From NCBI GenBank assembly GCA_021790955.1, contig JAJYFI010000001.1, positions 1 to 25,801 on the forward strand: 25,801 nucleotides of DNA, written 5' to 3'. Shown one piece after another: positions 2,734 through 22,382 of this stretch. This DNA is from a bacterium (lineage in GTDB: Bacteria; Elusimicrobiota; Elusimicrobia; UBA1565; UBA9628). Both the position numbers and the translations under genes were made by a program. Under the pieces are notes generated by a model. It was not told the DNA's origin. It saw only the letters and a list, made by a program, of their open reading frames with translations, and made no database searches. Positions within the stretch are counted from its first letter, which is position 1. Each line of letters opens with the position of its first letter.

Positions 2734-4128
2734 ATGCGGAAATCTCCTCTCAAGTCTTCCCGCGGGCAGCTTCTCATACCCGCGCTCTTTATTTTCCCGA
2801 GCCTGTTTTTGTTCGTTTATCTGATCTACGAGACGGCGAAGCTCTCCCGCGAAAAGATCCGCCACCAGTTCGCGATCGACTCGGCGGCCTTCATCGAGAT
2901 GAGCAACTATTCCGATTTTCTCAATCGCTCGGCCTATGTCAACGGCGCCTTCCCGATGCGCATCTTTAAGGAAGCGTTCGGCCCGGCGACGCAGATCCAG
3001 TTGAGATGCTACGACAGCCCCTGCCCCTCGGCGGACAGCCTCATGACGCTGATGTTCATGAACGGGGATTTTCCGATGGACACCCAAGATTCGGATTGGA
3101 TGAGCGCCGGAGGCGAGCAAGCCTACACGGCGAAAGCCAAGTGGGAAATCAGATTCTGCGATTCAAGCAGCAATCCGCCCTGCTTCATCGGCAACAAGGG
3201 AACCACCGACGGGGAGCCTGCCGACGGCGACGGCATGAACGTGGTGCCGCCGCCCACGCGGCAATGCGACAGCACGCTTCTTAAACAGCAGGGCGTCTCC
3301 CCGGGCGGCTCCTGCCATGAAATTTTCAACTACGGCACGGCCCAGGATTACGCCTCACCCATCCAGTACACCTGCGTCGCCCCGTATAGCGGCTCGGATT
3401 CGAGCAATCTCTGCCTCCAGCCGGGCCAGACGATCATCGACATATGGGCCAAGGTCTATACGCTGCTCGGCCAGGTCGAGGGCGCCCAGTTCGGGGTTCT
3501 GGGACGGCTCGCCGCCGACCATCACTTCCTGAAGAAGTCCTATTGGCTCAACACCTCGGGGCAGGGCCCCGACGGAGCCGACGCCCAGACCGCCTCGAAC
3601 AGCTTCAACGCCTCGGGGGCCTCCGGCTTCCAGAGCGCCGTGAGCTTCGACTGCCTCGATACGGTCACGGGCTTCGCGAGGACCGCCCACGGCCGCGGAG
3701 GCTGCCAGCCGGCGAAAGCGCCTTTTCTCGGAACGATGCAGCCCGCCCCCATGTGCATCATCAATCCGCCGATCCCGCTCTCCGGCACGGATTCCTGCCC
3801 CGAAGCCGGCGGGGGCATGGGAAGCGGGCTGTTTCAAGTGGCCTCTCTGGACCCGGGGATGGTGACGCCCGACGGGGGCGGGGGATCGATGCAGCGGGGA
3901 TGGATCGCGGCGACCACGTGGCATATCGTCGATCCCAAGACGGACGGAGCCGTCGACTGGGGCTCGGGGGCGGAAAATTTTTTCGGGGTGCCTTTCCAGG
4001 CTCCGGCCGTCTGCGCCAAGGCGACGCTTGGCGAGAGCCCCGACCCATACGCCAGCGTTTGGCCGGACCCGACCCCGAAATTTCAAACGCGGCTGAGGCC
4101 TTGCGACGTGTTGCCCATCGCGCTATGA
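2734..4128 (+). CDS. Tad-domain (TadG/TadE-like) pseudopilin with large Cys-rich C-terminal region, 464 aa
   Basis: N-terminus KSSRG|QLLIPALFIFPSLFLFVYLIYETAKLSREKIRHQFAIDSAA matches the Flp/Tad pseudopilin pattern (basic leader, G|Q, hydrophobic helix, 'Q-x-A-x-D-x-AA'). 14 Cys. ATG 2734 preferred over TTG 2725. Confidence 0.8.
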   Translation: MRKSPLKSSRGQLLIPALFIFPSLFLFVYLIYETAKLSREKIRHQFAIDSAAFIEMSNYSDFLNRSAYVNGAFPMRIFKEAFGPATQIQLRCYDSPCPSADSLMTLMFMNGDFPMDTQDSDWMSAGGEQAYTAKAKWEIRFCDSSSNPPCFIGNKGTTDGEPADGDGMNVVPPPTRQCDSTLLKQQGVSPGGSCHEIFNYGTAQDYASPIQYTCVAPYSGSDSSNLCLQPGQTIIDIWAKVYTLLGQVEGAQFGVLGRLAADHHFLKKSYWLNTSGQGPDGADAQTASNSFNASGASGFQSAVSFDCLDTVTGFARTAHGRGGCQPAKAPFLGTMQPAPMCIINPPIPLSGTDSCPEAGGGMGSGLFQVASLDPGMVTPDGGGGSMQRGWIAATTWHIVDPKTDGAVDWGSGAENFFGVPFQAPAVCAKATLGESPDPYASVWPDPTPKFQTRLRPCDVLPIAL

Positions 4129-4601
4129 CACGCGCCCGCGGGGCCAGGTCCGGCCAAGCGACGACGGAGGTCGTCCTGCTCATCCCGCTCTTCATTTTTT
4201 TCATGTTCGCTTTTGTTAAAATTTTTGGCCTCCTTATCCTGATTCAGCGCATGGAGATCGCTTCCTATTACGCCGCGCGGCGCTGGCAGCTGGAGTCGCA
4301 CCGCAACGTGGCGATCCAGCAGAGCTTCGACATGCCGACGCTCCTTCCCGACATCCAGTCCAAGGTGCAGAATTACCTGGGTTGGGGCAATCCCGAGTTC
4401 CAGAACCTCTTCGCCCTCGCCGACCCCGGGCCGATGGTGAGCGTCCAGCCGACCGAGGTATGGAACGTCGTGACGCTCACGGTTCCGATCTCGGAGACCC
4501 TCCTTTTTTTCAAGTTCAAGCCCCTGAACACGACGATGACCGTCACGAAGTACGTGCCGAATCGCGACAGGCCCATTCTATTTAAGCTGCCCGGGAGCTA
4601 G
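4125..4601 (+). CDS. TadE-family pseudopilin, 158 aa
   Basis: ATGA overlap with the upstream stop. ARSG|QATTEVVLLIPLFIFFMFAFVKIFG has the G|Q site, Glu at +5 and the LIP motif, then ASYYAARR, typical of TadE. Confidence 0.85.
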   Translation: MTRARGARSGQATTEVVLLIPLFIFFMFAFVKIFGLLILIQRMEIASYYAARRWQLESHRNVAIQQSFDMPTLLPDIQSKVQNYLGWGNPEFQNLFALADPGPMVSVQPTEVWNVVTLTVPISETLLFFKFKPLNTTMTVTKYVPNRDRPILFKLPGS

Positions 4602-4610
4602 AGGATTACG

Positions 4611-6305
4611 ATGAAAAAAATCTGGAGCCGTGCGAGGCTCTTCATGCAGCGCTGGTGGCTCGCGGTCGCGATCGTCGTCGGCCTCGGGCTTTCGATCGGG
4701 CTTCCGCTCTGGTACCTGGCGGGCATGGAGCCCGCGCTCAGGCGCTACATCATCGGCATCAACATGGCGGGGTTTCCGATGACCATCATCGGGACCCTGA
4801 TCTTCGTCGCCTTCCTTTATCTCATTCAGTACGGCGGCGGGTTCGCCCGCTTCCGCAAGGCGCGCATCGACGCCCAGAACGTCCAAGTCCGATTCCCGGA
4901 CGTCATCGGCCTGACGGAGGCCAAGCGCGAGGCGCTGGAGGTGGTCGAGCTCATCAAGGACCGCGCCGCGCTCAAGAAAGTCGGCGGGAAGATCATCCAC
5001 GGTCTCCTCATGATCGGCCCGCCCGGCTGCGGCAAGACCATGCTTGCCAAGGCGATCGCGACCGAGGCGGGGGTTCCCTTCCTCTCCGCGGCGGGCTCCG
5101 AGTTCGTCGAGATCTTCGTGGGGGTCGGCGCCTCGCGCGTGAGGAAGCTCTTCAAGCAGGCTCGGCAGTACGCCCAGGCCTACGGCGCCGCGATCATCTT
5201 CATCGACGAGCTCGAAGTCGTGGGCAAGTCCCGCGTCTTCTTCGACGCCTTCGGGGGCTCCTCGGAATCGAACAGCACCTTGAACCAGCTCTTGGTCGAG
5301 ATGGACGGCCTCACCGACATCGACGCCCCGGTGGTCGTGATCGGCGCGATGAACGCCCAACGCGAGGTTCTGGACCCCGCGCTCGTGCGTCCCGGGCGTT
5401 TCGACAGGACCATCACCATCGGAAGGCCCAATCTTTCCGAGCGCCAGGAGATATTCGAATATTACGCCAAAAAGATCCGCCTGGAGCCCGGGATGGATCT
5501 GGGGCGCCTCGCCCGAAAGGCCGTCTACAAGACGCCGGCCGAGATCGAGAATATCCTCAAGGAGGCGGCCTTGATCGCGACCCGCGACCGTCGCGAGATC
5601 GTCAGTTACAAGGACCTCTCTTCCGCGATCGAACGGATCGAGCTGGGGCTGGCGCATCGGCTCAATCTGACTCCCAAGGAAAAGCGGATGACCGCCTACC
5701 ATGAGGCGGGGCATCTCATCGTTCTGTACCTGACCCATCCGACGAACGACGTCTTCAAGGCCTCGATCATCGAACGCGGCGGGACGTTGGGGGTCGTCCA
5801 TTCCATCCCGCGGGAAGAACTCTATTCTTCGGACGCCAAGACGCTGCGCGCCCATATCAACGTCGCTCTTGGAGGCTACGCCGCGGAGAAGCTCAAATTT
5901 GGCGTGACGACGGATGGGGTTTCGGCCGATTTCGCCAACGCCGTTGAGATCGCGCACAAAATGGTGTGGCGATACGGCATGGGCCCCGAGGATTTGGTGG
6001 GAGACTTCACCCTGATCCCCAAGGAACAGCTCTCGGAAAGCCTCAAGGAACGCTTAAACGCCGCCACCCAATCGATCCTTCATGAATCCCTCAAGGAGGT
6101 CGAGAGTCTTCTAAGGGAGCATTCCTCAATCCTTGAGCGATTTGCGGAGGAGCTCGTCCGTCGCGAAGAACTTGATTATGATGAAATCGCCGCGATTTTT
6201 ACGGAATATGGCAAGCCCCCCAAGCCTCTTCCCGTCCCGGCCCCGGCCTTGCCCTCTCCTCAGTTGGACGGGAACGGCAACGGCAGCCCAGTAAAAACTG
6301 GGTAA
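4611..6305 (+). CDS. ftsH: FtsH-family ATP-dependent zinc metalloprotease paralog (2 TM, AAA+, peptidase M41), 564 aa
   Basis: SD GAGGA. Two N-terminal TM helices; VRFPDVIG; Walker A GPPGCGKT; pore-1 EFVEIFVGVG; Walker B IIFIDE; TLNQLLVEMDG; SRH LDPALVRPGRFDR; HEAGH zinc motif; GVSADF (third ligand Asp). Confidence 0.93.
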   Translation: MKKIWSRARLFMQRWWLAVAIVVGLGLSIGLPLWYLAGMEPALRRYIIGINMAGFPMTIIGTLIFVAFLYLIQYGGGFARFRKARIDAQNVQVRFPDVIGLTEAKREALEVVELIKDRAALKKVGGKIIHGLLMIGPPGCGKTMLAKAIATEAGVPFLSAAGSEFVEIFVGVGASRVRKLFKQARQYAQAYGAAIIFIDELEVVGKSRVFFDAFGGSSESNSTLNQLLVEMDGLTDIDAPVVVIGAMNAQREVLDPALVRPGRFDRTITIGRPNLSERQEIFEYYAKKIRLEPGMDLGRLARKAVYKTPAEIENILKEAALIATRDRREIVSYKDLSSAIERIELGLAHRLNLTPKEKRMTAYHEAGHLIVLYLTHPTNDVFKASIIERGGTLGVVHSIPREELYSSDAKTLRAHINVALGGYAAEKLKFGVTTDGVSADFANAVEIAHKMVWRYGMGPEDLVGDFTLIPKEQLSESLKERLNAATQSILHESLKEVESLLREHSSILERFAEELVRREELDYDEIAAIFTEYGKPPKPLPVPAPALPSPQLDGNGNGSPVKTG

Positions 6306-6321: not shown

Positions 6322-6350
6322 TTGACAAAGGAGAGGGAGCGCATTAAACT
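6322..6350 (+). promoter_or_regulatory. sigma70-type promoter heading the first block of Gly/Ala-rich paralogs
   Basis: TTGACA (6322-6327), 17 nt, TAAACT (6345-6350). The ORF track's TTG start at 6322 is this -35 box. Confidence 0.72.
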
Positions 6351-6366: not shown

Positions 6367-7410
6367 ATGGCGCTCACCGTCACGAGAAAAGGTTCGGACC
6401 CTTTCAAGAAATATTGGTGGTTGGTTCTGCTCATTTTTTTGCTGATGGGCGCCTGGAGCTTGTTTCCGACATTGGGGGGCGGCGTGGCGGGGCTCGACCG
6501 CAACCGCTTTCTTCTGGACGCCGGCGCCTTGAAGCCCTTGGACCAGAGCTTGGATGCCCTCAACTCTTCCCCGATCGGAGCCTCCGCGCCGGGAGGCGCC
6601 TTGGGGGGCGCGGTGAAAAGCGGCGCTGGAGGAGGCTCGACGGACCCCGGCGCCATGCTCTATCGGTCTCCCGCCGCGGGGGCCGCTTCGGCGGCGCCCG
6701 CGGCCGCTCCTCTGGCTGACGCCCTGGGAGAGATCAGCCGCCGGCCGGGCGGCGCCATGGCTGCCGCGCCGGCCGCGGCGGCCGCCTCGCCGTATTCGAT
6801 TCCATCCGCCAAGTTCGCGCCGATCGCGATGGGAGGCGGCGGGGGCGGCTCGGGCGCCGGATACGGCGCGGGAGGCTCGGCCGGCCTCGGAGCCTTCGGG
6901 ACGGTCAACGCGCGCCCCGGCATCTCGGCCGCGCAGGGGATGAGCCAGGACATGGCGGCGCTCTCTCCCAAAGGCGGCGCGTTTTCCCAGCTCAAGGCCG
7001 CCGCGGGCTCCGGAGCCGCCCTGGCCGGCATGACGGCCGGGTCGGCCGCGAAGGGCATGAGCAACTCCAATTTCGACGGCAGCGGCGGCGCGGGCGTCGC
7101 GCTTCCGGAGACGTCCGGAGGGGGTTTTGGGGCCACCCAGCAGGGGCTTTTGAGCTTGGCTGCGCCCGCGCCGGGGACGGCGCAAATGACGGGAGGGGCG
7201 ATGCCGCCCGCGCCCATGGCCTCGGGCCCCAGCAAGCAGAAGCAGATGTTGATGATGCTCATGATGGCGGGCGCTATGGGGCTCATGATGGCCGCGACCG
7301 GCGGCTCGGCCTCGATGATCATGCCGATGATGGCCATGCAGATGATGCCGATGATGATGGGCATGATGACGGGGCCTTCCGGGGGCTATGGCGGCGGCTA
7401 CGGCGGCTAG
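6367..7410 (+). CDS. Gly/Ala-rich membrane-anchored hypothetical protein, array member 1, with Met-rich C-terminus, 347 aa
   Basis: ATG 6367 after GAGG. TM segment KKYWWLVLLIFLLMGAWSLFP; family motif AFSQLKAAAG...SNSNFDG; 20 Met in 41 residues near the C-terminus. Confidence 0.85.
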   Translation: MALTVTRKGSDPFKKYWWLVLLIFLLMGAWSLFPTLGGGVAGLDRNRFLLDAGALKPLDQSLDALNSSPIGASAPGGALGGAVKSGAGGGSTDPGAMLYRSPAAGAASAAPAAAPLADALGEISRRPGGAMAAAPAAAAASPYSIPSAKFAPIAMGGGGGGSGAGYGAGGSAGLGAFGTVNARPGISAAQGMSQDMAALSPKGGAFSQLKAAAGSGAALAGMTAGSAAKGMSNSNFDGSGGAGVALPETSGGGFGATQQGLLSLAAPAPGTAQMTGGAMPPAPMASGPSKQKQMLMMLMMAGAMGLMMAATGGSASMIMPMMAMQMMPMMMGMMTGPSGGYGGGYGG

Positions 7411-7444
7411 TCCTTGAAAGTAGATTTGTTGAAGGAGGGAGTTC

Positions 7445-8962
7445 ATGGCTGAGGGACCGACGGGATCGAGGGAGAGCGAGGAAGAATCCGGGGGAGGGCT
7501 CAACGCGGGCGGTGGGCCTGCGGGGTCCAAGGGATTTTGGACGAGCCTTCTGTCGTCCTTGGGGCTTGGCGGCGGGACCGGCGCGGCGGCCGCCGGGACC
7601 GTCGCGGAGGGAGGGGCCTTGGGCGGCGGCGGACTCGGCGCCGGGATCGGCAGCGGGCTCCTTGCGACCAAGGCGGGCTTGATCGGGGTGATCGCCGCCG
7701 GAACGGCGATCGCGGGCGGCGTCGGCGTCGCCACCTACAAGATGTTCGGGCCGCAGTCTTTGGGGACGGTCAGCGGCTATTCGTCCCTTTTCCAGCCCAA
7801 GCCGAAGAATCAGGCCGCCGCTCCCGGCGCCGCGGGACCAAGCGGCAATGGAGGCGGCGCGTCGCAGAGATCCCTGGCGGAGTTTAGGGAAGCCAACGCC
7901 GCGCAGAAGACGGCCGCGACCCCCGCCGCGATGCCGGCCGGATATGCGGCGCCGGGAGCCCAGGCCGGCGCCGCCTCGGCCGGATCCTTGTCCAATTTGA
8001 CCGCCGCGAACGCGAGCTTCATCCCCTCCCTTCCCGGCGGCGCCAAGCCCATTGGAAACGCCGGAGCGCCTCAGAACTCGATGGCTCCCGGGGGATCGGG
8101 GGCCGCCGCCGCGCCCTCCGGACAGGGAACCGGCGCCGCCGCGCAGTCGGTGGTGGGAAGCCAGGGCGGCGCGATGAGCCCTGCCGCGGCCGGCGTTAAC
8201 GGGGGGCTGAGGGCCTTTGGCGCCACGGGAGGCAACGGCGGCGGCGGCGGCGCCTACGGGCAGGCGCAGCACGAGTTCGCCGAGAACGCCGGCGCCACGT
8301 CCTCCCAGGGCGCGGGGCAGACCTACGACAACGGCGGGCGCAGCGGAGGAAACTCTCTCGGCGGCACGGGAACGGGCGCCGCGGGCGTCAGCGGCACGGG
8401 TCCCTCCGGAATCTCGAATCCCACCTATTCCAACTCGAATCCCTGGCGGGGCGGGGAGTCCTCGGTGCCGCCGACGAGCGGCGCCACGGGTGCGAGCCCC
8501 TGGCAGACCGCGATCGAATTGGCGACCGGCTTGACGGTCGGCGCCCTGGCGTTGCTGTTCCTGGCTCGAAGGATGGCGCTTAAAGCGATCGCGGCAGGGC
8601 CGGAGGCCGAGGCCGCCGCGCAAATGACAGTTCGTGTGCTATTAGGAATTGCTATCGCCATGGGGCTCGCCGTTGTCTATTTAGGCGCTAGAATGGGCAT
8701 GGGCCCATACAGCCAGACGCTTCAAGGAGTGCTCTTTATTATGTCCGGAGCGGCGATCGCCACGAGCGCGGCTGCTTCCATGCTATATCCTAAAGGCATA
8801 GGGGCCATCGCCATCGCGGGAATGATCTCCGCGGCGGTCTTCACGGGGCTGGCGCTCTTCACTCCTGAATCCAGCACCTGCCCGCCGAGCGGAAGCTGTC
8901 CCGATCTCTTCGGCTCCTCGGGAAACCAAAATCCGAGCGCGATCAGCAATCTAGGGCTCTGA
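7445..8962 (+). CDS. Gly/Ala-rich membrane protein, array member 2, 505 aa
   Basis: SD AAGGAGG. TM LLATKAGLIGVIAAGTAIAGGVGVATY; motif AYGQAQ...GQTYDNG; SPWQ followed by 3-4 hydrophobic helices; C-terminal CPPSGSC. Confidence 0.88.
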   Translation: MAEGPTGSRESEEESGGGLNAGGGPAGSKGFWTSLLSSLGLGGGTGAAAAGTVAEGGALGGGGLGAGIGSGLLATKAGLIGVIAAGTAIAGGVGVATYKMFGPQSLGTVSGYSSLFQPKPKNQAAAPGAAGPSGNGGGASQRSLAEFREANAAQKTAATPAAMPAGYAAPGAQAGAASAGSLSNLTAANASFIPSLPGGAKPIGNAGAPQNSMAPGGSGAAAAPSGQGTGAAAQSVVGSQGGAMSPAAAGVNGGLRAFGATGGNGGGGGAYGQAQHEFAENAGATSSQGAGQTYDNGGRSGGNSLGGTGTGAAGVSGTGPSGISNPTYSNSNPWRGGESSVPPTSGATGASPWQTAIELATGLTVGALALLFLARRMALKAIAAGPEAEAAAQMTVRVLLGIAIAMGLAVVYLGARMGMGPYSQTLQGVLFIMSGAAIATSAAASMLYPKGIGAIAIAGMISAAVFTGLALFTPESSTCPPSGSCPDLFGSSGNQNPSAISNLGL

Positions 8963-8975
8963 TCAGGAGAGAACG

Positions 8976-10505
8976 ATGGAATTAGACGAGGTTCCTTCTT
9001 ATAAGCTGAAGGACCAGTGGGTCCGCAAGCCTTCCGGTCGGGACAGGCGCAAAAAGAAAAAGGCCGGCGGAGGATGGTTCTCGCGCTTTGCCGGAGGCGG
9101 GCCAAGCGCGGCGGCCTCGGGAACCGAAGCGGCGTCATCCGCCTCCGAGTCGGTCCAGGCGATCGAGAGGCTCCTGGGTCTTGGGACGAAATACGGAGGA
9201 GGAGCCGCGGCCTTCGCATGGAAAAGCGCGCTGGCCATTCCCGCTTTGTCGATCGCCGTCGGCGCCGGGGCCTACGGGCTCGGCCGGGTCTTTGCTCCGC
9301 CGAAGCCGTCCGCCGCCGCCTCCGGCGACGCGAGGACGGCCCTCTTTGAAAAGTTGGGGCCTTACAAGGGCAAACTCTCGAAACTTCCCACCACCACGCA
9401 GGCGATCGACTCCCTGGGCCTTGGAAGCCATAGCCCGGCGCCCGTGGCGTCCTCGGAGGCCGCCGCGCCGAATCCCCCGCGCGCCAAAGTCCTGCCGCAA
9501 TCCCCGGCGGCCGCCGCTTCCGCGAGGGCCGGCCGCGGCTCCTCCTCGGGTGGAGTGGCCGCGGGCGCCGTCATCCCCCATGTGGGCCAATTCCCGGGAG
9601 GGCGATCCGCCGTTTCCAACACCGATGCCCGCGCCTTGAGCCCTCAGGGGCGTCCGGCGGCGGTCTCGCCCAAAGATCAGCACACCCACGCGCTGGCCGC
9701 GCTTTTCGGCGGAGCCTCTCCTAGCATGGAGAAGAGCGGCGCCGTCGGGGGAGCCATCCAAGGAGAAGCCTTGGGGCAGTTGGGCGGGGCCAACAGGTTT
9801 TCCAACGCGGGGCTTCAAGCGGGCGTCCAGGAAGGCGCGGCCGGCAACGCGGGCATGGCTTTCGATCACGGCGCGGCCCTCCCGACGACGGTCGGAGGGG
9901 GCGTGGCCCTGACCGGGGCCGGTGACGGCAGCTCCAACCCCGGGGCGCAACCGGCGGCGTCCAACTCCTGGGGAAGCGCCGGCTCGGCTCCGGGATCGCC
10001 GATGGGAGGCGGCGGCGGCGCGCGATCGCTTCCGACGGCCGGCAGTCCCGCCGGAGCGACCGATAACGGCACCCAGACCATGATTGATATCGCCACCGGG
10101 CTTCTATTGGGCGCCATGGTTCTCTTGTTGGTGGCCCGGTTCGCGAAAGGTCCTTGGGCGATTGGGCTCAAGATCGCGGCAGCCGTGGCGGCGGCCGCCG
10201 CGGCCGCGATCGGCGGGGCTTTGATGAGTTCGGGCCATTTTTGGACCGGGCTTATGTTCTTGGTGCCCGGAGGGATCATGGCGGCGATGGCGGCCATGTC
10301 CGCCTGGGGAGCGATGACGGCGGGCGAAGGCGCCGCGTCGGGGCTGCAGGCCCAGATCAGCAGTATGTATACGACGACGTCCTCGGCCGGCAGCACGACA
10401 ACATTGTCCTCGACGGCGTCTTCCATCACCACAACGTTGGGGGGCGGTTATACCTCGACTTATTCCGGCGCTATGTGCACCAGTCTGACGAGTCCCGGGG
10501 GATGA
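8976..10505 (+). CDS. Gly/Ala-rich membrane protein, array member 3, with Thr/Ser-rich tail, 509 aa
   Basis: SD AGGAGA. RRKKKKAGGGWF; TM ALAIPALSIAVGAGAYGLG; motif ALGQLGGAN...AGMAFDHG; C-terminal hydrophobic helices, then a T/S-rich tail. Confidence 0.88.
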   Translation: MELDEVPSYKLKDQWVRKPSGRDRRKKKKAGGGWFSRFAGGGPSAAASGTEAASSASESVQAIERLLGLGTKYGGGAAAFAWKSALAIPALSIAVGAGAYGLGRVFAPPKPSAAASGDARTALFEKLGPYKGKLSKLPTTTQAIDSLGLGSHSPAPVASSEAAAPNPPRAKVLPQSPAAAASARAGRGSSSGGVAAGAVIPHVGQFPGGRSAVSNTDARALSPQGRPAAVSPKDQHTHALAALFGGASPSMEKSGAVGGAIQGEALGQLGGANRFSNAGLQAGVQEGAAGNAGMAFDHGAALPTTVGGGVALTGAGDGSSNPGAQPAASNSWGSAGSAPGSPMGGGGGARSLPTAGSPAGATDNGTQTMIDIATGLLLGAMVLLLVARFAKGPWAIGLKIAAAVAAAAAAAIGGALMSSGHFWTGLMFLVPGGIMAAMAAMSAWGAMTAGEGAASGLQAQISSMYTTTSSAGSTTTLSSTASSITTTLGGGYTSTYSGAMCTSLTSPGG

Positions 10506-10511
10506 CCGGCG

Positions 10512-12053: not shown

Positions 12054-12076
12054 TCCGTTTCGTCGGGACGTTTTTC

Positions 12077-14973: not shown

Positions 14974-15002
14974 TTGACAAGCTCGGAGGCCGAGATTAAA
15001 CT
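14974..15002 (+). promoter_or_regulatory. sigma70-type promoter heading the second block of the array
   Basis: TTGACA (14974-14979), 17 nt, TAAACT (14997-15002); boxes identical to those at 6322-6350. Confidence 0.72.
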
Positions 15003-15963: not shown

Positions 15964-18897
15964 ATGGCAGACAACCCCAAATCGCAGGGAACGGAGCGCG
16001 ACAAGAGGGAGGCGCCCTGGGCGTCTCTCCTGGGCGGCGGGAAGGGCCTCTCGAAATTCCAGCTGCGAAGCGGGACGACGAAGCTTTCCTTCATCGACAG
16101 GTTGCGCCAGTTCCGTCGCAAGGATCTCGCCTTCATCCTGGCGGGCCTCGGCATCCTGTTCATGGCGCCGCTGGCCGACTTTCTGTTCACCGGATCCGGC
16201 AACGAGGAGGCGGGCTCTTTCGGGACCGGCTGGGGGATGCGCAACGCCTTGGGCGGATTGGGCGGCGCCGGAGGGCCTTTCGACTACGGGGTCAACGGCA
16301 TGGCTCCCGGCGGCGCCGTGGGCGCCAACGGCGAGGTCATCACGCCGCTCGACGCGCGCGATCCGGCTTCTTTGATCCTGGGTCTTCCCGGGATGGGAGG
16401 CGAGACGCCGAAGGCGCCGGAGGCAAGCCCAGCCGCGCCGCAAAAGACTTGGAAGGATTCCTTCGCCGGCGCGGCCGCCGGGGCGGCAAAGGCCGCGGTC
16501 CGGGCGGCGGGGTTCAGCATCCCGCATCTCCCCTTGGGCGCTTCAGGGCTCAGGGCCCTGGGCTTTGGAGGCGGCGCGCATGCCGCGGGCGGCGCGGCAG
16601 CGGGCGGCGCGGCCGGAGTCGGCGCCTGGGGGGTTCCCACGCACGCGGCGGGCAACGACTCCCTGAGCAAGGTGTTGTCGTCTCCCGGATATAAGGGCGC
16701 GGCCGCCCGCAATTTCACGAGCGGAGGCCAAGGCTTCGATAAAATGAAGGCCGCCGCCGGCAAGGCCGCCAATAATTTCAACAACCTGGGCCGCGCGGCG
16801 AACAACCTCCAGAAGGCCGCGGCGACCCCGATCGTCGGGGCGGGCGGCGCCAACACGGGCGGCGCCGGCGCCGGAGGGAAGGGCGGAGGGATGGGCAACG
16901 AGGGCTCGATCGGCAAGACCTCCAAATCCATCGGCCAATCGCTCGCCTTCATGGCGGCCAAGCAGAACCTCCAGCACGCGATCGACCTTTACTGGAAGCA
17001 GCAGGAGGCGTGGGCGATGCTGGTCCCGAACATGGTGACCCAAATGGCCAACAGCATGGCCCAGATCCCCACCACGGTGATGTCCTCCTATCTCATGTAC
17101 AGCATGATGCGGCATCAAATGGGGATGGGCGCCGGCGCCGGAGGAGGGCAGTCCGTGCAGTGCACGATGAGCAGCGGCAGCCCTGTTTTTGGCGGGTGTC
17201 AGGAAGTTCCGAATTGCGGCGCGGTCCTGAGCACCATGATGATGGCAAACGCGGCGACCGGCATGGGCGCTTCCAACGGCGCCGGCGGCAATACGGGATT
17301 AGGCGCGAATGCGGGCTTAGCGGCGGCCATGACCACTCCTTACTGTCTGCAGGGATCGCAACTCATGGTGACCGCAAGCCAATCGCCGGTCATGGGCGCC
17401 ACGTGCCAACCCTGCGGCTCCGGTTCGCCGAACGGTCCGAATAGCGGCGACGGCCTCAATCCCGCCAGCGGCAAACAGGAAAATGGGGTCGGGGATGTCC
17501 CGGGGATGGCCTCCAGCGTCCAACTCAACGCTCCCGCGCTTTGCAGTTCCTTAAAAGCTCTAGCCGAGCCCAAAATAGGCGGTCCGTCCGCCGTCACGGG
17601 AATGGGCCGTCGGCAGCAGGCGGATTTTTACGGCAAGCTTAATACCTCGGCGCAGTCCATCAACCAAATGGGATTGGCGTTAAGCCAGAGCGGGAAGCCG
17701 TCCGCTTGCGGAGGCGGTAGTATGGCGGGACTTCAGAATACGAAGCCACTTAACCAACTGTTGGTGCAGAGCAGGGATCAGCTGGCTCAGATCGCGAATA
17801 CCATCAAAATGATGTCGCCGGCGGCCGGATCATCGGCTAATGATATTTACGATCAAGATTTCGACATCGCCACGCAGGCTTGCGCGGTTCTCAAGCAGAC
17901 GGGCCGCGGCGTCGGTCAAATCATCAGTCCCTTGAACAAAGCCCAAGAGACGAACTCGTCGGCATTGCAACCGGCCGCGAACCAAATCCAGGATCTCTTG
18001 GGACAGTTGTCTAATCAAACCCAGAATTTGAAGCAAAGGGCGAGCGCATCGCTCGATCTTTACAACGGGCTGGCGGGGCCCCTTGGCGAAGTGTCAAGCC
18101 TCCTTTCCAAAATCGGACAGGATATTACGACGATTAAGGGCCAACTGAACAGCACGGCGCAGGGCTTGTCCCCAAACAAGCTGAATGCGGGATTGGGCCA
18201 GACGGCGCAGAAAAGCGCCAATTCGTACATTACGATATTGAATGGCGACATCCCGAATCTTAGGAAAAACTTCGACCAGATTAACCAGCAATACAAGTCC
18301 GAGAATCAAGCCCTGAATCTGATCCAGACGACATTGCTGGGTCAAACGGGGGGGATCTCTCCCACGAATGGCTTGTTGACGCAGCTTATGGCGTTTACCT
18401 ATTACGCCGTCAGCGGGCAAACTCCGAGCCTTGCCATCCCCCCCGGGGTTTCCGTGCCCCAGCCGTCTTTCCTGCCCATCGTCGGCAATGGATCCGGGGG
18501 TTCGGCGCAGGCTGGCGGGTCGGCCGCAACGGGCGCCGGGGGTCAATGCGAAGGGTCGATCGCTTCTTGCGCTTCGAACGTCAACCAGACATTCCAGGAA
18601 CAAATATCGAACGCGTCGAATGGGCAAGTCGGTTCGAAAGTCGTTAATTCGGCCTATCAGGGCTTCAAGGGTTCCTTGGGGTGGAATCCGTTCTCCCAAT
18701 GGGTCGCCAGCATTTGTCCCGGCCGCCTGGCGGCGGCTCCCGCCGCGTCAGGTGGCGTTACCTTGAATTCCCTTCTAAACAACGGAGCCATCGGCCAGGC
18801 GATCGCGACAATCAACAGCGATCTCAACGCCGCGGGGATGCCGTCGGCGGAAGCGACGACAGCTTCCGCATCTGGTGGTGGGAGTGGCGACGAATAA
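15964..18897 (+). CDS. Large membrane-anchored protein, array member 7: Gly/Ala-rich N-terminal half and Gln/Asn/Leu-rich helical C-terminal half, 977 aa
   Basis: ATG 15964 with SD GGAGG; the track's 15589 start overlaps member 6. TM RKDLAFILAGLGILFMAPLADFLF; weaker motif GFDKMKAAAGKAANNFN; Met-rich segment; Cys pairs; heptad-like region; GQCEGSIASC. Confidence 0.9.
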   Translation: MADNPKSQGTERDKREAPWASLLGGGKGLSKFQLRSGTTKLSFIDRLRQFRRKDLAFILAGLGILFMAPLADFLFTGSGNEEAGSFGTGWGMRNALGGLGGAGGPFDYGVNGMAPGGAVGANGEVITPLDARDPASLILGLPGMGGETPKAPEASPAAPQKTWKDSFAGAAAGAAKAAVRAAGFSIPHLPLGASGLRALGFGGGAHAAGGAAAGGAAGVGAWGVPTHAAGNDSLSKVLSSPGYKGAAARNFTSGGQGFDKMKAAAGKAANNFNNLGRAANNLQKAAATPIVGAGGANTGGAGAGGKGGGMGNEGSIGKTSKSIGQSLAFMAAKQNLQHAIDLYWKQQEAWAMLVPNMVTQMANSMAQIPTTVMSSYLMYSMMRHQMGMGAGAGGGQSVQCTMSSGSPVFGGCQEVPNCGAVLSTMMMANAATGMGASNGAGGNTGLGANAGLAAAMTTPYCLQGSQLMVTASQSPVMGATCQPCGSGSPNGPNSGDGLNPASGKQENGVGDVPGMASSVQLNAPALCSSLKALAEPKIGGPSAVTGMGRRQQADFYGKLNTSAQSINQMGLALSQSGKPSACGGGSMAGLQNTKPLNQLLVQSRDQLAQIANTIKMMSPAAGSSANDIYDQDFDIATQACAVLKQTGRGVGQIISPLNKAQETNSSALQPAANQIQDLLGQLSNQTQNLKQRASASLDLYNGLAGPLGEVSSLLSKIGQDITTIKGQLNSTAQGLSPNKLNAGLGQTAQKSANSYITILNGDIPNLRKNFDQINQQYKSENQALNLIQTTLLGQTGGISPTNGLLTQLMAFTYYAVSGQTPSLAIPPGVSVPQPSFLPIVGNGSGGSAQAGGSAATGAGGQCEGSIASCASNVNQTFQEQISNASNGQVGSKVVNSAYQGFKGSLGWNPFSQWVASICPGRLAAAPAASGGVTLNSLLNNGAIGQAIATINSDLNAAGMPSAEATTASASGGGSGDE

Positions 18898-18951: not shown

Positions 18952-18980
18952 TTGTCGGACTCTCCGCGCTTGTCTATACT
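18952..18980 (+). promoter_or_regulatory. sigma70-type promoter for the secreted protein/O-antigen-ligase unit
   Basis: TTGTCG (18952-18957), 17 nt, TATACT (18975-18980); ATG at 18991. Confidence 0.55.
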
Positions 18981-18990
18981 TTTCTTAGCC

Positions 18991-20661
18991 ATGAAGCGCG
19001 AGGGAAAGATCATCGGGGCTTTTCTCTGGGGGCTGCTCGCTCTCCAATCGCTGATTTCCATGGCCGCGGCCGCGGACGGAAGTCCGGCCTCGTCTCGGAG
19101 AATGAGCCGGGACATGGTTTCTCGCCTCGCGAAGGGCATCAGTTCTCCTTCGAGCTCCGCGGCGCGGGCTTTTGCCGGCCGACTGGCCGTTTTTTTGTCG
19201 CGCCGACCCGAGCTTCGAATCCCGCCTGCTCAAGGACTCGTTCTGGCGAAGCGATGGCTCAAATCCCAGGCGACTCTCAGGGCCCGCTATGGGAAGGCCG
19301 CCGAGCTGTACCTCGTCATCGGGGACCGCGTCGCGGCTCTCGGCTGGACGGATGCGGCGCTCCGCAAGCGGCTGTCCCAGGCGCGAAGCCTGCCGAGCTA
19401 TGCCGAATTTCAGAAGAGGCTTGCGCGCGACAAGTTTCTGATGCGGAAGGCGAATCCCTCGCGGCGGAGCTCTTCCAAGCCGGATTCCAGCCAAGAGTAT
19501 CAGGTCTTCGGATTTTTAAATCAAAGCGCCGAGATCGCCCATCGGGTCTTATGGGAATCCCGCAAGAAGCCGCGCCTGGCCAAGCTGGCCGCGCCTTCCT
19601 TTGGAGGCGCCGCCGGCGCCGCGGCGGCGGCCGTGGCGGTTGGCGGCGGCCGCCGGGGCCATCTTCCCAAGGATGCGCCTGCCCAGCCCGCGAACGCTCC
19701 CGTCGAGCCGCCTCATCCGACGTTCGTGGCCTCGGCCGGGTTCGACACGAAATCGCTTTATGAAGACGGAGCCCTTATCGTCCATGTGCCGGGAGGCAAA
19801 GGACAGGGCCTTCAAGAGCTTTCGATCAAGGTCTATAGCCGCCAGGACATGACGACGGGGCAAATGGTGGATGAGATCGGCGTCTTCAATATCACCGATC
19901 ATTCCCATATTTTCGGACAACGATTTCCCGTCCTTCCTCCCACGAACGGGAAGATCTATTTGGCCGACTTGAGCTCCTCGCCGAATCCGAACAAGGCTCC
20001 CTCCGTTCCCTTGACGATCGGCTCGGACGGCGGCATCTCGCTCGGTTCGGCCGCGACGACCTCGCTGTCGGATCTCTTGGCGCGGCGCCGAGCCCAGGTC
20101 GCCCAATCGGGCCTTGTCGCCGCCGTCGGCGGCCAGAACTTCCGCGTCATCGGGCAGGGCGGGGCCAAGGGCTCGCTGCTTTATTTCGCTTGCGACAAGG
20201 ACGGAAAGTTGCTCGGCAACGGCCAACACCCGGATGCCATGGCCGCCGTCAATCAAATCGGCCAGGATGGCTTGCTCAGCACTGTCACCACCCCGGTGCC
20301 GTTGGGATTCATCGGGAAGAATCAAAACGGCAAATCTCAATTTTGGTTTTTGCAATGGGATCCGGTCCTCCAAAATTTTGTTCCCGTCGCCGGGCGGGCT
20401 CCAGGACCGCCATGGGGCCCCGTTCCCTCTTCCGGCACGATCGCCCCGGTGGGTCCCATCCCTAATCCAAGCCCTGGCCCCACCCCCGGCGGAGGTGGGC
20501 AGAGCTGCAGTTTCGCCTCGTTTGAGCCGGACCCCCATGAGCCGGGCGGCATATGCTACTACAGCTGTCCGGACGGCTCTACGGCGCAATACATCTCTCC
20601 GGACTACACTCAAAACGGCTGTCCTTCGCGACTCGTCGTCAACGCGCTGCTATCCAAGTAG
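18991..20661 (+). CDS. Secreted hypothetical protein with Pro-rich linker and small four-Cys C-terminal domain, 556 aa
   Basis: Signal-peptide-like MKREGKIIGAFLWGLLALQSLISMAAAAD; central beta-rich region; GPIPNPSPGPTPGGGG linker; CSF...CYYSC...GCPS tail. Confidence 0.82.
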   Translation: MKREGKIIGAFLWGLLALQSLISMAAAADGSPASSRRMSRDMVSRLAKGISSPSSSAARAFAGRLAVFLSRRPELRIPPAQGLVLAKRWLKSQATLRARYGKAAELYLVIGDRVAALGWTDAALRKRLSQARSLPSYAEFQKRLARDKFLMRKANPSRRSSSKPDSSQEYQVFGFLNQSAEIAHRVLWESRKKPRLAKLAAPSFGGAAGAAAAAVAVGGGRRGHLPKDAPAQPANAPVEPPHPTFVASAGFDTKSLYEDGALIVHVPGGKGQGLQELSIKVYSRQDMTTGQMVDEIGVFNITDHSHIFGQRFPVLPPTNGKIYLADLSSSPNPNKAPSVPLTIGSDGGISLGSAATTSLSDLLARRRAQVAQSGLVAAVGGQNFRVIGQGGAKGSLLYFACDKDGKLLGNGQHPDAMAAVNQIGQDGLLSTVTTPVPLGFIGKNQNGKSQFWFLQWDPVLQNFVPVAGRAPGPPWGPVPSSGTIAPVGPIPNPSPGPTPGGGGQSCSFASFEPDPHEPGGICYYSCPDGSTAQYISPDYTQNGCPSRLVVNALLSK

Positions 20662-20672
20662 CTAGCGCGCTT

Positions 20673-22382
20673 TTGGCGGGGCTTTGGGCGAGCCTCCTTT
20701 TCGGACGTTTCGCCGGGCCGGGGCTCGCCGTCGCTTTCGAGGGGGCGATTTTTCTCCTCGCATTTCGCGAGTCCAAAGTCTTCCCGCCTTCAAGCCTGGG
20801 CGCTTGGTTTGCCTGGCTTGTCTGGATGGCGCTCTCGGCGGCCCATTCCGCGCAGCCGCTTTCGAGCCTTGGGCCCGTCTCCCAATGGGGTGCGGCCGTC
20901 GCTCTTTGGGGGCTTCTGAGGACGCGTGGAAACGCCGATTGGCGCGGGACATGGATCGTCGGTGTTTTTGCCCTGGGGATCGCGGCGGGAGCGGCGATCG
21001 CCGTCATGGGGCCTCCGGGGCTGCTTCCTCCCAATCAAAACTACACGGCGATGTTGATGGCGGCCGCGGCCGCCGCGGGACTCGGCCTTTGGGGGCGATC
21101 CGCCGTCGCGCGCCGCGTACGGCTGGCCGCTGTCGCGGCCATGATCCTCGCCGTGATCGGGCTTTTATGGCTCAAGTCGCGAGGGGCTCTTTTGGGACTT
21201 TTGGCGGCCGCCGCGGCGGGGCTTGTCCCCCCATGGTCACGCCGGAGAACGATCTGGCTGCTCTCGGGCGCGGCTTTTGCGGCCGCTCTCGCCCTTTGGA
21301 TTTGGCCGGACGGCATCCTGACGGAGCTCAAGCTGGGGGATCCTCAAGCGTTGGCGAGGCCGCATTTGTGGCTCTCCGCGCTCAAGGTGATCGCGGATCA
21401 TCCTTGGCTGGGAGAGGGCCCGGGCAATTTCGAACTGGGACTCTGGAGGCATCTGCCGCTCTCTGGGAGGACCCTTATCCATTACGGTTTCTACGCCGCG
21501 CAGGCGCATAGCGAGGTCTTGGAGTTGGCGGCGGAGTCCGGCATCGTGGGGCTCGGGCTATTCCTTGTCGCGTTCTGGAAGACGGTCCAATTCGCAGGGG
21601 AGCGAGGGATTTTCGAGGAGAGCGCCTTCCGCGCCGTTGTCGCGATGTCGGCTCAGGCTTGCGTCGACAACGTCCTCCATCTCCCGGGCGCCGCTCTCTT
21701 TTTTTTCTCGGCGCTGGCGGCGTCTCGCCCGGACGAAGCGGCTCCGGCCTCCCGGCTTCCTGCCAAGGAAGGCCGCAAGGGCGCGAGGGAGCGTCTTTCC
21801 CGTCTGTCATGGAAGGCCTTGGGCGTCGCGGGTCTTCTCGGCGTGGCCGGCGCGGTCATGATCGGTCGAGCCGAAAAGGAATGTTCCCGAAGCCTCCCTG
21901 CTTTTCAAGAAGGAATCGCCGCCGCCCGACGTTGCGTTCGCCTTTTCCCGGGCGACCCCGGGCGCCGGGAGCTTCTGGCCCGCGCCTTCATGCGCTCGCG
22001 CCCGCCCAGGGTCGAGAAAGCCCTTGAGGAGATCGAAGGGGCCATGCGCCTTTCCCCGGACGACGCGCTCTACCCCGTCATGGCGGCCGAGATCCTCGCG
22101 CGGCGGCGGGATTGGCCGGAGGTGATGGCTCTCACCAAGAAAGCGCTCTCTCTTGAGCCGAATTTCATCGAGGCCCGGCTTCTTCGGGCGGAGGCCCTGG
22201 CGGCCATGGGACGGTCCGTGGCGGCCCGGCGGGAATGGGAGCGGGCCTCGTCGGCGGCCTCGATCGCGGCCAGGGCGAACCCGGCGGAGAAGCTCCTCTC
22301 GCGTTATGACGAGTTGATCCTTTCCTTTGATAAATCGCGATGGCGCCGTTTGGGACGCGTATTGACTTCTCATAAAGAGTAG
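20673..22382 (+). CDS. O-antigen ligase / O-oligosaccharyltransferase-like (Wzy_C) polytopic membrane protein with C-terminal TPR region
   Basis: About 12 hydrophobic segments; PPNQNYTA, SRGALLG, RPHLWLSALKVIADHPWLGEGPGNF, AHSEVLELAAESGIVGL; C-terminal TPR-like helices (KALEEIEGAMRLSPDD, TKKALSLEPNFIEARLLRAEAL). Start uncertain (TTG 20673, or ATG 20553 overlapping the upstream gene). Confidence 0.85.
   Translation: MAGLWASLLFGRFAGPGLAVAFEGAIFLLAFRESKVFPPSSLGAWFAWLVWMALSAAHSAQPLSSLGPVSQWGAAVALWGLLRTRGNADWRGTWIVGVFALGIAAGAAIAVMGPPGLLPPNQNYTAMLMAAAAAAGLGLWGRSAVARRVRLAAVAAMILAVIGLLWLKSRGALLGLLAAAAAGLVPPWSRRRTIWLLSGAAFAAALALWIWPDGILTELKLGDPQALARPHLWLSALKVIADHPWLGEGPGNFELGLWRHLPLSGRTLIHYGFYAAQAHSEVLELAAESGIVGLGLFLVAFWKTVQFAGERGIFEESAFRAVVAMSAQACVDNVLHLPGAALFFFSALAASRPDEAAPASRLPAKEGRKGARERLSRLSWKALGVAGLLGVAGAVMIGRAEKECSRSLPAFQEGIAAARRCVRLFPGDPGRRELLARAFMRSRPPRVEKALEEIEGAMRLSPDDALYPVMAAEILARRRDWPEVMALTKKALSLEPNFIEARLLRAEALAAMGRSVAARREWERASSAASIAARANPAEKLLSRYDELILSFDKSRWRRLGRVLTSHKE

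Follow-up and report, generated by a model that had tools for sequence, protein, structure and literature searches.

The locus described here raises the question of why pilin genes of the Tad type, a membrane protease of the FtsH family and a series of low-complexity membrane proteins should stand together, and whether they serve one machine or several. The window, by which we mean the whole analysed stretch of 25,801 nucleotides, comes from an uncultivated Elusimicrobiota genome recovered from mine drainage, the completeness of which is only 62%. A first-pass annotation of the window had guessed the phylum correctly, and all of its open reading frames lie where it had placed them, with a coding-like GC3 of 0.73–0.84. 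Taken as a whole, its observation is partly confirmed and its interpretation is partly supported. No paper describing this cluster was found in the literature, and nothing from the locus was detected in the RNA runs of the same study. The reading that we favour, with moderate confidence, is that the window covers the far part of a pilus supercluster of the Tad (type IVc) kind, which is specific to one Elusimicrobiota class and composed of two separable modules. The genes and sites occur in the following order:

2734–4128, plus strand: TadG-type large minor pilin, 464 aa
4125–4601, plus strand: TadE-type pseudopilin, 158 aa (PF07811, 20.3–22.7 bits, cut-off 22.9)
4611–6305, plus strand: short FtsH paralog, 564 aa (AAA 120 bits, Peptidase_M41 131 bits)
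6322–6350, plus strand: promoter-like site TTGACA-17-TAAACT, just upstream of A1
6367–7410, plus strand: A1, membrane protein, no Pfam match
7445–8962, 8976–10505, 10512–12053 and 12077–13618, plus strand: A2–A5, four paralogs of 505–513 aa
13615–14400, minus strand: LpxL/HtrB-like lipid acyltransferase (PF03279, 47.5 bits; NCBIfam matches)
14448–14915, minus strand: SRPBCC protein, polyketide-cyclase-like, lipid-binding fold (PF10604, 25 bits, below the cut-off of 27.4)
14974–15002, plus strand: promoter-like site TTGACA-17-TAAACT upstream of B1, hexamers identical to those of the A1 site
15026–15952, plus strand: B1, single-TM protein
15964–18897, plus strand: B2, 977 aa, no family match
18991–20661, plus strand: C, secreted protein, 556 aa
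20553–22382, plus strand: Wzy_C (O-antigen-ligase family) membrane protein with C-terminal TPRs
22403–24559, plus strand: neighbouring dCache-HAMP-PAS histidine kinase

The clustering is far beyond chance, as synteny is kept both within the genus and across the order. The tight coupling noticed earlier holds: the 464-aa and 158-aa genes share an ATGA overlap (4125–4128), by which the TadE-type gene is translationally coupled to the preceding TadG-type gene, and a 9-nt gap (4602–4610) precedes the FtsH paralog, the median spacing at that point being 61 nt. Among 80 Elusimicrobiota loci, TadE lies beside a TadG-like gene in 79 (median gap -4) and the FtsH paralog is also present in 72; four of the seven loci devoid of it stop at a contig edge. 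The TadG-type gene was found in 91 of the 101 genomes of the order, and the TadE-type protein in 145 of 301 genomes of the phylum, confined to one class.

The description of the first two products as Tad-type pseudopilins stood in its direction but exceeded the direct evidence, because the TadE-like protein falls just under the PF07811 cut-off and the 464-aa protein has no direct match in Pfam or NCBIfam, its TadG-type N-terminus being visible only via a family profile. PF13400 is matched weakly by 22 of the 61 members of that family; only 156 clusters were matched among 1.84 billion proteins, the remotest of them true PF13400 proteins, and AFDB neighbours are named TadG and 'Pilus assembly protein'. 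The TadG-type protein has an N-terminal helix with a conserved R/K-G-Q...I-P motif, followed by a periplasmic alpha/beta domain in which Cys307 and Cys355 are conserved; it also carries an insertion of ~80 aa specific to the genus. Its structure model (pLDDT 79, pTM 0.82) did not match solved folds, and pilin matches reached only Z ~4. The TadE-type protein carries the prepilin motif G|QATTE, in which G10, A12 and E15 are invariant in 55 sequences; a second conserved motif, KYVPNRDRPI, is C-terminal. Both proteins conserve Gly-Gln where cleavage by prepilin peptidase would be expected; Glu+5 is kept by the TadE-type protein and replaced by Pro in the TadG-type protein, which fits a top-most filament subunit.

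The two proteins are predicted to bind each other in the manner of TadE/F/G tip complexes, through the helices at their N-termini. The modelled heterodimer, with an interface of the alpha-1 helices and the conserved C-terminal motifs of both partners, reached an ipSAE of 0.62 (best control 0.00), a mark attained by 58 of 80 solved complexes and 2 of 110 mismatched pairs; this score is the model's own confidence, obtained from custom alignments for the dimer alone. A published model places TadG as the backbone of tip complexes made up of TadE/F/G (Herrou et al. 2025, PMC12075869), and the Kil/Tad Tip of Myxococcus xanthus described there resembles the present pair in combining a small TadE-like pilin with a large TadG/KilN-like one that has long helices and a beta scaffold, as well as in the predicted N-terminal helix bundle, the conserved cysteines and a variable inserted region. 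However, a sequence relation is undetectable beyond the N-terminal helix, and what was modelled here is a dimer. No T3SS*-like partner or evidence of predation was found in this comparison.

Tad motor genes do exist elsewhere in the genome. Contig C120 carries a TadZ-CpaF fusion together with CpaB and a secretin, the apparatus extends to contig C230 and a prepilin peptidase is encoded on C4; neither TadB/TadC nor the Flp pilin turned up in this incomplete assembly. The apparatus is not linked to the pilin–protease trio in this genome and genus, while in most genera of the order the full set lies 11–20 kb upstream on the same strand, an arrangement seen on the contig of the TadG-type gene in ~30 genomes of families f1 and f2. 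In one relative the annotated genes comprise a Flp-like pilin, TadE, RcpC, secretin, a TadZ-TadA fusion, TadB, TadC and a TPR protein, and in a gut-type genome of 1.64 Mb the apparatus is directly contiguous with the pilin genes via a signalling island. The histidine kinase at the end of the window resembles kinases of the signalling island found between the Tad locus and the trio in relatives.

The relatives share the canonical gene order of Tad/Flp loci (Aggregatibacter flp-rcp-tad, Caulobacter cpa), namely Flp-like class III pilin, TadE, RcpC/CpaB, secretin, TadZ, TadA, TadB, TadC, a TadD-like TPR protein and the TadG- and TadE-type genes. The elusimicrobial loci differ in that TadZ and TadA are fused, the secretin has only 248 aa, the locus opens with a PorV-like barrel, tadD and the minor pilins are separated by a signalling island of 8–10 kb, and the short FtsH paralog and low-complexity membrane proteins come after them. 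This genus differs further in having the locus split into separate places.

The protease is indeed a dedicated paralog, distinct from the canonical FtsH encoded elsewhere in the genome, to which it is 36% identical. Its motifs are complete (Walker A/B, pore loop FVG, arginine fingers, HEAGH), and judged from them it is apparently an active AAA+/zinc protease. Like housekeeping FtsH (TIGR01241; PDB 2DHR, 7VHP), it has an AAA+ module, pore loop and arginine fingers, a HEXXH zinc site and a pair of TM helices at the N-terminus. In contrast to that protein, it scores 453 bits, below the TIGR01241 equivalog cut-off of 600, the loop between its TM helices is short and lacks a periplasmic domain, and it has a fixed genomic place beside pilin or giant-protein genes. 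In other classes, orthologues 50–56% identical to it occur apart from the pilin pair and adjoin a response regulator as well as giant secreted proteins of 2654–3224 aa.

This distribution bears on the possibility, which we consider rather unlikely, that the linkage is historical: the paralog would be the phylum's general second protease for membrane quality control or regulation, and the A and B proteins envelope scaffolds with no pilus role. The paralog is phylum-wide and predates the pilin pair, as that account would have it. Where the two coexist, however, they are adjacent in almost all genomes of six families (f1, f2, f3, f5, f8 and f11) with one exception, an adjacency that would be hard to maintain without selection, and in other classes the paralog again has large secreted proteins, rather than random genes, as its neighbours. 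The scaffolds envisaged could, for example, be tethers that span the periplasm and are connected with lipid or LPS biogenesis.

Downstream of the protease, the first-pass annotation had counted seven co-oriented related membrane proteins. We find instead five contiguous genes (6367–13618), then the two minus-strand genes that it had missed, then B1 and B2; homology is demonstrable for A2–A5 only, A1 and B1 sharing a motif of ~30 residues, QL...FD(G/N), that B2 does not have. Family searches matched the array to no characterised family, and searches with A1–A5, B1, B2 and C revealed no function. A1, whose family was traced in 54 loci by jackhmmer and which lies 61–158 nt downstream of the FtsH paralog in most loci, has an N-terminal DPFKKYWW motif and TM helix, then a linker rich in Gly, Ala and Ser and a hydrophobic tail rich in Met. 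A2–A5, present in 39–53 loci and 48–56% identical to homologues in the genus, consist of a basic cytoplasmic N-tail of 65–110 aa, one TM helix, a low-complexity linker of 250–300 aa containing the QL...FD motif and a Gly-rich C-terminal module with several predicted TM helices. Their nearest ESM Atlas clusters, unnamed and mostly of Elusimicrobiota proteins, score 0.86–0.87, below the lead threshold of 0.9.

Long open frames are abundant on both strands of high-GC DNA, and the ESM Atlas models are poor (pLDDT 0.44 for A4, 0.38 for B2), as would be expected if the array frames were spurious. That idea is nevertheless already very unlikely, given a GC3 of 0.78–0.84 in the chosen frames, gene order and sequences that are conserved (48–67% identity in the genus, detectable order-wide), conserved N-terminal, motif and C-terminal segments, and a tight spacing of 6–34 nt.

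Of the two minus-strand genes, the LpxL-like one has an uncertain start codon and occupies the same place in relatives, where the SRPBCC gene also recurs in the interval between the array and B1. Their conservation inside the cluster, together with the Wzy_C gene at its end, is again compatible with a historical linkage. B1 combines a low-complexity region, a QT...FDG motif and a Cys-rich C-terminus conserved among relatives. B2 has a basic N-tail and one TM helix (residues 53–77), and its large periplasmic part contains helical regions that are Gly-rich and Gln/Asn-rich; it occurs in 89 of the 101 genomes of the order, where it shares the strand of the TadG-type gene and lies 9–29 kb downstream of it, and inside the cluster in families f1 and f3. 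The protein called secreted, C, does have a signal-peptide-like N-terminus, and a beta-rich core (residues 250–470); its relatives have 1071–1201 aa, and its model (pLDDT 62) gave no clear fold match.

The Wzy_C-TPR assignment was correct (Wzy_C 47.7 bits, cut-off 31.7), the true start probably lying downstream of 20553. Its proposed membership of the system as an O-oligosaccharyltransferase of the PglL/TfpO type was not borne out. It shares with those enzymes and with WaaL ligases a Wzy_C domain in a polytopic membrane protein, but has C-terminal TPRs and only partial synteny, and the family is the generic O-antigen-ligase one with no PglL/TfpO-specific signal. The best NCBIfam match, an exosortase-associated putative ligase, is weak (38 bits, cut-off 188), and neither family searches nor synteny gave evidence of a protein substrate. 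The gene is a facultative neighbour, collinear only in genera g1–g6 and g18, all within one family, and unlinked in genus g17, family f3 and others.

Low-complexity regions are targets of general O-oligosaccharyltransferases. The Ser/Ala/Pro-rich linkers resemble such targets, an analogy that may speak for the first-pass proposal that all the genes build one contact-dependent adhesion, predation or membrane-bridging machine, in which the array proteins would be cargo or structural subunits delivered or displayed by the Tad pilus, FtsH would process them and the Wzy_C-TPR protein would O-glycosylate the linkers. In several genera the Tad locus, signalling island, trio, array, B1/B2, C, in some cases a giant protein, and the Wzy_C-TPR gene are collinear on one strand over ~45 kb. 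Giant genes implicated in predation follow Tad-like systems in Omnitrophota, a related phylum, where very large secreted proteins have as their neighbour a secretion/pilus locus of >10 genes that includes rcpC and gspD/E/F-like genes as well as class III signal peptides (West-Roberts et al. 2023, bioRxiv 10.1101/2023.11.21.568195); the words 'FtsH' and 'Tad' are absent from that paper. Elusimicrobial relatives similarly have proteins of 2700–4200 aa in the cluster, whereas the window has no giant gene, its largest protein being B2. Against a single machine, the modules occur apart: gut-type relatives keep the Tad locus and pilin pair without the FtsH paralog or array, and other classes have the paralog but no pilin pair. 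Neither a class III signal nor a prepilin motif is present in the array proteins, and domain searches of the window proteins found no toxin, effector or lytic domain. The array and B1 have promoter-like sites of their own (7 such sites were found, 1.8 expected), which, as regards the array, suits a historical linkage as well. We therefore regard the single integrated machine as unlikely.

The explanation in terms of two modules, including a tip-complex role and an FtsH paralog acting on co-encoded envelope proteins, is the one that we favour with moderate confidence. In the first module, the translationally coupled minor pilins, one large and TadG-type, the other small and TadE-type, would associate through a bundle of their N-terminal helices and form the tip or priming complex of a Flp-like pilus built by the Tad apparatus, encoded on another contig here and upstream in most relatives. 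The second module would begin with the short FtsH paralog, followed by the separately promoted A1–A5, B1 and B2, putative N-in membrane proteins with long basic cytoplasmic tails and Gly/Ala/Ser-rich periplasmic linkers, and then by the secreted C. The array and the paralog are tied by adjacency alone, and the paralog could act on prepilins and not on the array, in line with its tight coupling to TadE. In the two-module explanation, the paralog would work from the cytoplasmic face on the co-encoded envelope proteins, in their quality control, turnover or processing, and these proteins may be components specific to the lineage that lie at the surface or span the periplasm, and that often accompany the pilus locus.

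The window is contig C20 of a metagenome-assembled genome (1.67 Mb, 62% complete), and the closest matches to its DNA come from mine-drainage metagenomes. Its genes, called on the basis of GC3 and homology, are given below together with promoter-like sites.

Genes and promoter-like sites of the window
1-1095, plus strand: RlmI-like methyltransferase
1098-2357, plus strand: PD-(D/E)XK nuclease
2734-4128, plus strand: TadG-type 464-aa protein
4125-4601, plus strand: TadE-type 158-aa protein, ATGA overlap with the 464-aa gene
4611-6305, plus strand: FtsH paralog, 9-nt gap after the TadE-type gene
6322-6350: promoter-like site TTGACA-17-TAAACT before A1
6367-7410, plus strand: array protein A1
7445-13618, plus strand: array proteins A2-A5, gaps of 6-34 nt
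13615-14400, minus strand: LpxL-like acyltransferase (Pfam/NCBIfam Lip_A_acyltrans)
14448-14915, minus strand: SRPBCC protein
14974-15002: promoter-like site TTGACA-17-TAAACT before B1, hexamers and spacing identical to the A1 site
15026-15952, plus strand: membrane protein B1
15964-18897, plus strand: membrane protein B2
18952-18980: weaker promoter-like site before C
18991-20661, plus strand: secreted protein C
20553-22382, plus strand: Wzy_C-TPR protein (Pfam/NCBIfam)
after the Wzy_C-TPR gene, plus strand: dCache-HAMP-PAS histidine kinase (kinase confirmed by Pfam/NCBIfam)
last gene listed, plus strand: LysM-FecR protein

The Pfam and NCBIfam scans also confirmed the AAA and M41 domains of the FtsH paralog and gave a borderline TadE match for the 158-aa protein, while an Rfam scan of the window returned no riboswitch or other RNA. 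The nuclease is Cas4-like and carries a C-terminal extension of about 160 aa; it lies directly upstream of the TadG-TadE-FtsH trio in the window's genus only, where it takes the place of the signalling island of most relatives.

A profile of the 464-aa protein recovered 119 relatives, and among the best 80 of these all records that name a taxon belong to Elusimicrobia or Elusimicrobiota, some others being labelled just 'bacterium'. The protein is encoded in 91 of the 101 genomes of the order. The association of the cluster genes that the first-pass annotation had read from a single contig is borne out by the neighbourhoods in relatives: in the loci fetched for the best 80 of the 119, the TadE-like gene adjoins the 464-aa gene in 79 of 80 (median gap -4, the same ATGA coupling), 72 of these 79 hold the complete trio (four of the seven remaining cases being contig ends), and B2 is found in 89 of the 101 genomes of the order. 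Within the window's genus synteny extends from the nuclease gene through to the LysM gene, and three families of the order share the gene order trio, A1, two to four A2-type genes, (SRPBCC), B1, B2 and C.

The TadE-type protein scores slightly below the PF07811 cut-off of 22.9 bits (20.3 bits in the protein scan, 22.7 in the genome scan). Across 55 sequences of this protein G10, A12 and E15 are invariant and Q11 is conserved in at least 90%, and the motif G|QATTE reads as a classical prepilin site, predicted to be cut by prepilin peptidase at the start of the hydrophobic helix. The TadG-type protein has a conserved G-Q at the equivalent place and Pro at position +5. In the pseudopili of type II secretion the filament-capping subunit GspK likewise lacks Glu5. 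The 464-aa protein of the window matched neither PF13400 nor any other Pfam or NCBIfam family, and 22 of 61 members of its family match PF13400 weakly (best E 0.0067). The family is small (156 clusters among 1.84 billion representatives); its most distant profile matches cover the N-terminal helix only and are genuine PF13400 'TadE/G-like' proteins (24-46 bits to PF13400).

The AlphaFold model of the TadG-type protein (pLDDT 79, pTM 0.82) predicts a long N-terminal helix, two more long helices and a beta sheet. Foldseek found no match to it in the PDB, and the VIA-align scores, Z of at most 6.6 to inositol-monophosphatase-like alpha/beta folds and about 4 to pilins, lie within noise; in AFDB its neighbours comprise an unnamed relative, an entry named 'Pilus assembly protein' and, for the N-terminal helix only, TadG proteins. 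When the mature TadG-type and TadE-type proteins were co-folded, the predicted interface reached an ipSAE of 0.62 versus 0.00 for the best control, a mark that 58 of 80 solved complexes attained, as did 2 of 110 mismatched pairs, although these benchmark counts hold only roughly because own alignments were used. In the predicted complex the N-terminal helices lie side by side, touching across residues 13-76 in one chain and 15-55 in the other, and a further contact is predicted between the conserved C-terminal motifs of the two proteins. TadE, TadF and TadG form tip complexes in which the large TadG is the backbone (PMC12075869), and the predicted pair, with its N-terminal helix bundle, matches this published picture.

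Two peculiarities of the TadG-type proteins were noted besides. In the window's genus a Cys-rich insertion of about 80 aa (residues ~140-235), absent in other genera and modelled with low confidence, may represent a variable exposed region. In one genome of family f8 (L139, G226:C35, 2751-11770) five genes for Gly/Ala/Ser-rich membrane proteins come immediately after a second TadG-type paralog, and the TadE-FtsH pair lies 5 kb off, beyond unrelated genes.

The Tad motor genes expected to accompany such pilins are present in the window's own genome. One contig, G000:C120, begins inside TadE and encodes a TadZ-CpaF fusion (814-aa open frame, PF00437 213 bits, 65% identical to that of a relative), CpaB and a short secretin, with subsequent genes of the Tad locus on C230 and a prepilin peptidase (Peptidase_A24) on G000:C4. 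Single-domain TadB and TadC and a Flp-type pilin were not found in this 62%-complete assembly, whose sole T2SSF protein is of the PilC type (C133); both the TadB/TadC platform proteins and the Flp-type pilin do occur elsewhere in the genus (G002:C54) and in further relatives. RcpC and Secretin were confirmed by Pfam in a relative, and the Flp-like pilin scores 23.1 bits against a Class_IIIsignal cut-off of 23.7, with no match in a PF04964 scan. The fusion joins TadZ (ParA/MinD-like) and TadA/CpaF in one protein of ~775 aa (L123 13250-15577; G000:C120:2137-4305); the Tad locus begins with a PorV-like barrel gene and has a secretin of only 248 aa.

On a 3.1-Mb contig of a relative the Tad locus comprises the PorV-like barrel, a Flp-like class III pilin, TadE (40.5 bits), RcpC, secretin, TadZ-TadA, TadB, TadC and a TPR protein, followed by a HAMP protein, small proteins, response regulators and kinases, and then by the trio. 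The TadZ-TadA fusion was found in 98 of the 101 genomes of the order, and comparison of coordinates places it 11-20 kb from the 464-aa gene, on one strand, in ~30 genomes of families f1 and f2; in the window's genus, genus g11 and family f3 the fusion and the minor-pilin genes are on different contigs. A gut-type genome assembled as a single contig of 1,643,562 bp has the Tad locus, the signalling island and the pilin pair in one uninterrupted block, with no related gene behind it. The refuting possibility that the window's genome lacks any Tad motor is thus disposed of, and the pilin pair probably belongs with a Tad locus.

The FtsH paralog can be aligned with solved FtsH proteins throughout its soluble part, and it retains the AAA+ and M41 domains, Walker A/B, the FVG pore loop, the arginine fingers and HEAGH. 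It has no periplasmic domain, a short loop joining its two transmembrane helices, and against the TIGR01241 equivalog it scores 453 bits (cut-off 600), the match beginning at model position 117. The idea that it is the housekeeping copy was rejected, as a separate canonical FtsH, to which it is 36% identical, is present in each genome tested. The N-terminal 105 residues have strong matches in families f1, f2, f3, f5, f8 and f11, where the paralog adjoins the TadE-like gene in all genomes but one. Family f5 has other Gly/Ala/Ser-rich membrane proteins behind its trio and, in one case, a protein of >4192 aa.

Other classes of the phylum yield weaker N-terminal matches, with full-length proteins 50-56% identical; the pilin pair was not found in these paralog-carrying genomes, which also encode canonical FtsH, whereas the gut-type genome has the canonical FtsH only. 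Three other-class genomes share one arrangement behind the paralog, with a conserved lipoprotein-like protein, then a small protein and then a secreted one, of 256-304, 140-180 and 2654-3224 aa respectively (L133 8226-19128; L136 5542-17627; L137 8151-19717), and a response-regulator gene lies directly upstream of the paralog in L136 and in both loci of family f6. The giant proteins of these classes are related to each other, and BLAST detected no relation between them and B2, C or the 2700-3100-aa proteins of the window's order.

The description of the region behind the trio as seven co-oriented related membrane proteins stands in part: the co-oriented genes are there, but the run is interrupted by two opposite-strand genes, for the acyltransferase and the SRPBCC protein, that had been missed. 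Among the array proteins composition-corrected BLAST linked only A4 with A5, and iterated profiles linked A2-A5 mutually, as a family present in 39-53 related loci, and set A1 apart as a separate family of 54 loci. A2-A5 share a layout in which a basic N-terminal tail of 65-110 residues leads through one transmembrane helix into a Gly/Ala/Ser-rich linker of 250-300 residues and a Gly-rich C-terminal module with several predicted transmembrane helices. A1-A5 all carry a short QL-x(about 27)-FD(G/N) motif, which recurs in B1 with its spacer lengthened and which B2 lacks. This pattern was defined post hoc, with the data already seen, and arises in 0.6-2.4% of shuffles per protein. Neither Pfam nor NCBIfam assigned A1-A5, B1, B2, C or their homologues to a family; what matches there were stood at chance level (DUF745, mycoplas_twoTM). 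In the ESM Atlas A4 falls into unnamed Elusimicrobiota clusters only, and look-ups for B2 and C returned nothing. The possibility that the array consists of spurious ORFs was rejected. The Gly/Ala/Ser-rich proteins encoded behind the paralog in family f5 and the other classes escape the A-family profiles, the exception being a weak, bias-heavy match in G226, and for this reason the array is to be regarded as an order-level rather than a phylum-level family.

A cytoplasmic N-terminal tail of 13-110 residues precedes the first transmembrane helix in all A and B proteins. FtsH starts the degradation of membrane proteins from a cytoplasmic tail. We infer that the A and B proteins are substrates of the paralog.

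B2 lies 9-29 kb downstream of the 464-aa gene and on the same strand wherever contigs allow, in f1 as well as f3. For the secreted protein C a homologue search yielded genus-level relatives only, an effect of the limited length range of that search; its model is moderate (pLDDT 62), fold searches gave no clear fold (Z of at most 5.2), and its sole confident AFDB neighbour is an unnamed protein (E 4.4e-19, TM 0.30). The identical promoter-like sites before A1 and B1 suggest that the array and B1-B2 are transcribed separately, and together with the weaker site before C they may mark a shared regulon, the chance expectation for such sites in the region being 1.8.

Several further features of this part of the cluster deserve mention. 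The LpxL-like acyltransferase and the SRPBCC protein of lipid-binding fold (13615-14915, minus strand) occupy the equivalent position in other genera too, which hints at a connection with lipids or glycolipids. In relatives, secreted proteins of 2719-3114 aa are encoded between C and the Wzy_C-TPR gene (L131 1291-10635; L132 7616-15775; L140 7421-19999), and family f5 has one of >4192 aa; in the window's genus, whose genomes are smaller (about 2-2.3 Mb), no giant secreted protein follows C. The array region of one relative (L033, G008:C14, 9624-10204) holds a two-gene cassette that, from its AbrB/MazE-like N-terminus, looks like a toxin-antitoxin pair.

The Wzy_C domain, a feature shared with the PglL/TfpO protein O-oligosaccharyltransferases, is above its threshold (47.7 bits, cut-off 31.7), and the protein carrying it is a generic member of the O-antigen-ligase family with only generic ligase-family matches. 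Its gene is present in 60 of the 101 genomes of the order. Several f1 genera have it collinear with the cluster, ~13-14 kb beyond the point where B2 begins, with the gene for a secreted protein (2700-3100 aa) in the intervening DNA; in other genomes it sits on a different contig or at a distance of 600 kb. The protein may have a part in decorating the array linkers.

The single integrated machine envisaged in the first-pass annotation is not supported by the comparison of genomes, in which its parts occur separately. Two modules can be distinguished. The first consists of the Tad locus, the signalling island and the TadG/TadE pair, and occurs alone in gut-type genomes; the second consists of the short FtsH paralog with large or low-complexity envelope proteins, and occurs in other classes apart from the pilin pair. 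The window's order has both modules joined, with a tight junction between TadE and FtsH. A joint reading would make the short paralog the motor of an undescribed Elusimicrobiota envelope-protein pathway and, at the same time, a servicing factor of the Tad tip and part of a contact-dependent surface machine; taken whole, we consider it unlikely. Under such a reading the paralog would extract, trim or license membrane-anchored low-complexity or giant surface proteins, one class would have coupled this pathway physically and functionally to the Tad pilus, with the TadG/TadE tip serviced by the paralog, and the A-array would supply membrane-inserting subunits of the surface machine. The locus turned up in no RNA run; three metatranscriptomes of the same mine-drainage study contained only short AAA-motif fragments, from other organisms.

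A search of the literature on Elusimicrobia together with FtsH, TadE or Tad found no description of the cluster, nor, in the papers searched, of an FtsH paralog or this array in Tad loci or in Elusimicrobia. Denise et al. 2019 record Tad systems in Elusimicrobia and nothing beyond this; West-Roberts et al. 2023 report Tad-like loci adjoining giant genes in Omnitrophota, in a paper that contains no word match for 'FtsH'.

The data presented here indicate that one entire class of a phylum that has received little study retains a TadG/TadE pair fixed to a second, stripped-down FtsH, in a cluster that often adds membrane-protein families matching nothing known. Tad pili are widespread organelles of adhesion and predation, and the building and servicing of their tips is only now being worked out. 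The lifestyles of Elusimicrobiota probably range from free-living to host-associated, and possibly to epibiotic. The pilin pair, the paralog, A1, the A2-type proteins and B2 provide a conserved set of targets for envelope biology in this phylum. Even if the modules are linked by history alone, three unannotated protein families are now defined and the single-machine idea is corrected; if the paralog acts on pilins or envelope proteins, FtsH-type proteases would gain a new function and type IV filaments a new accessory layer.
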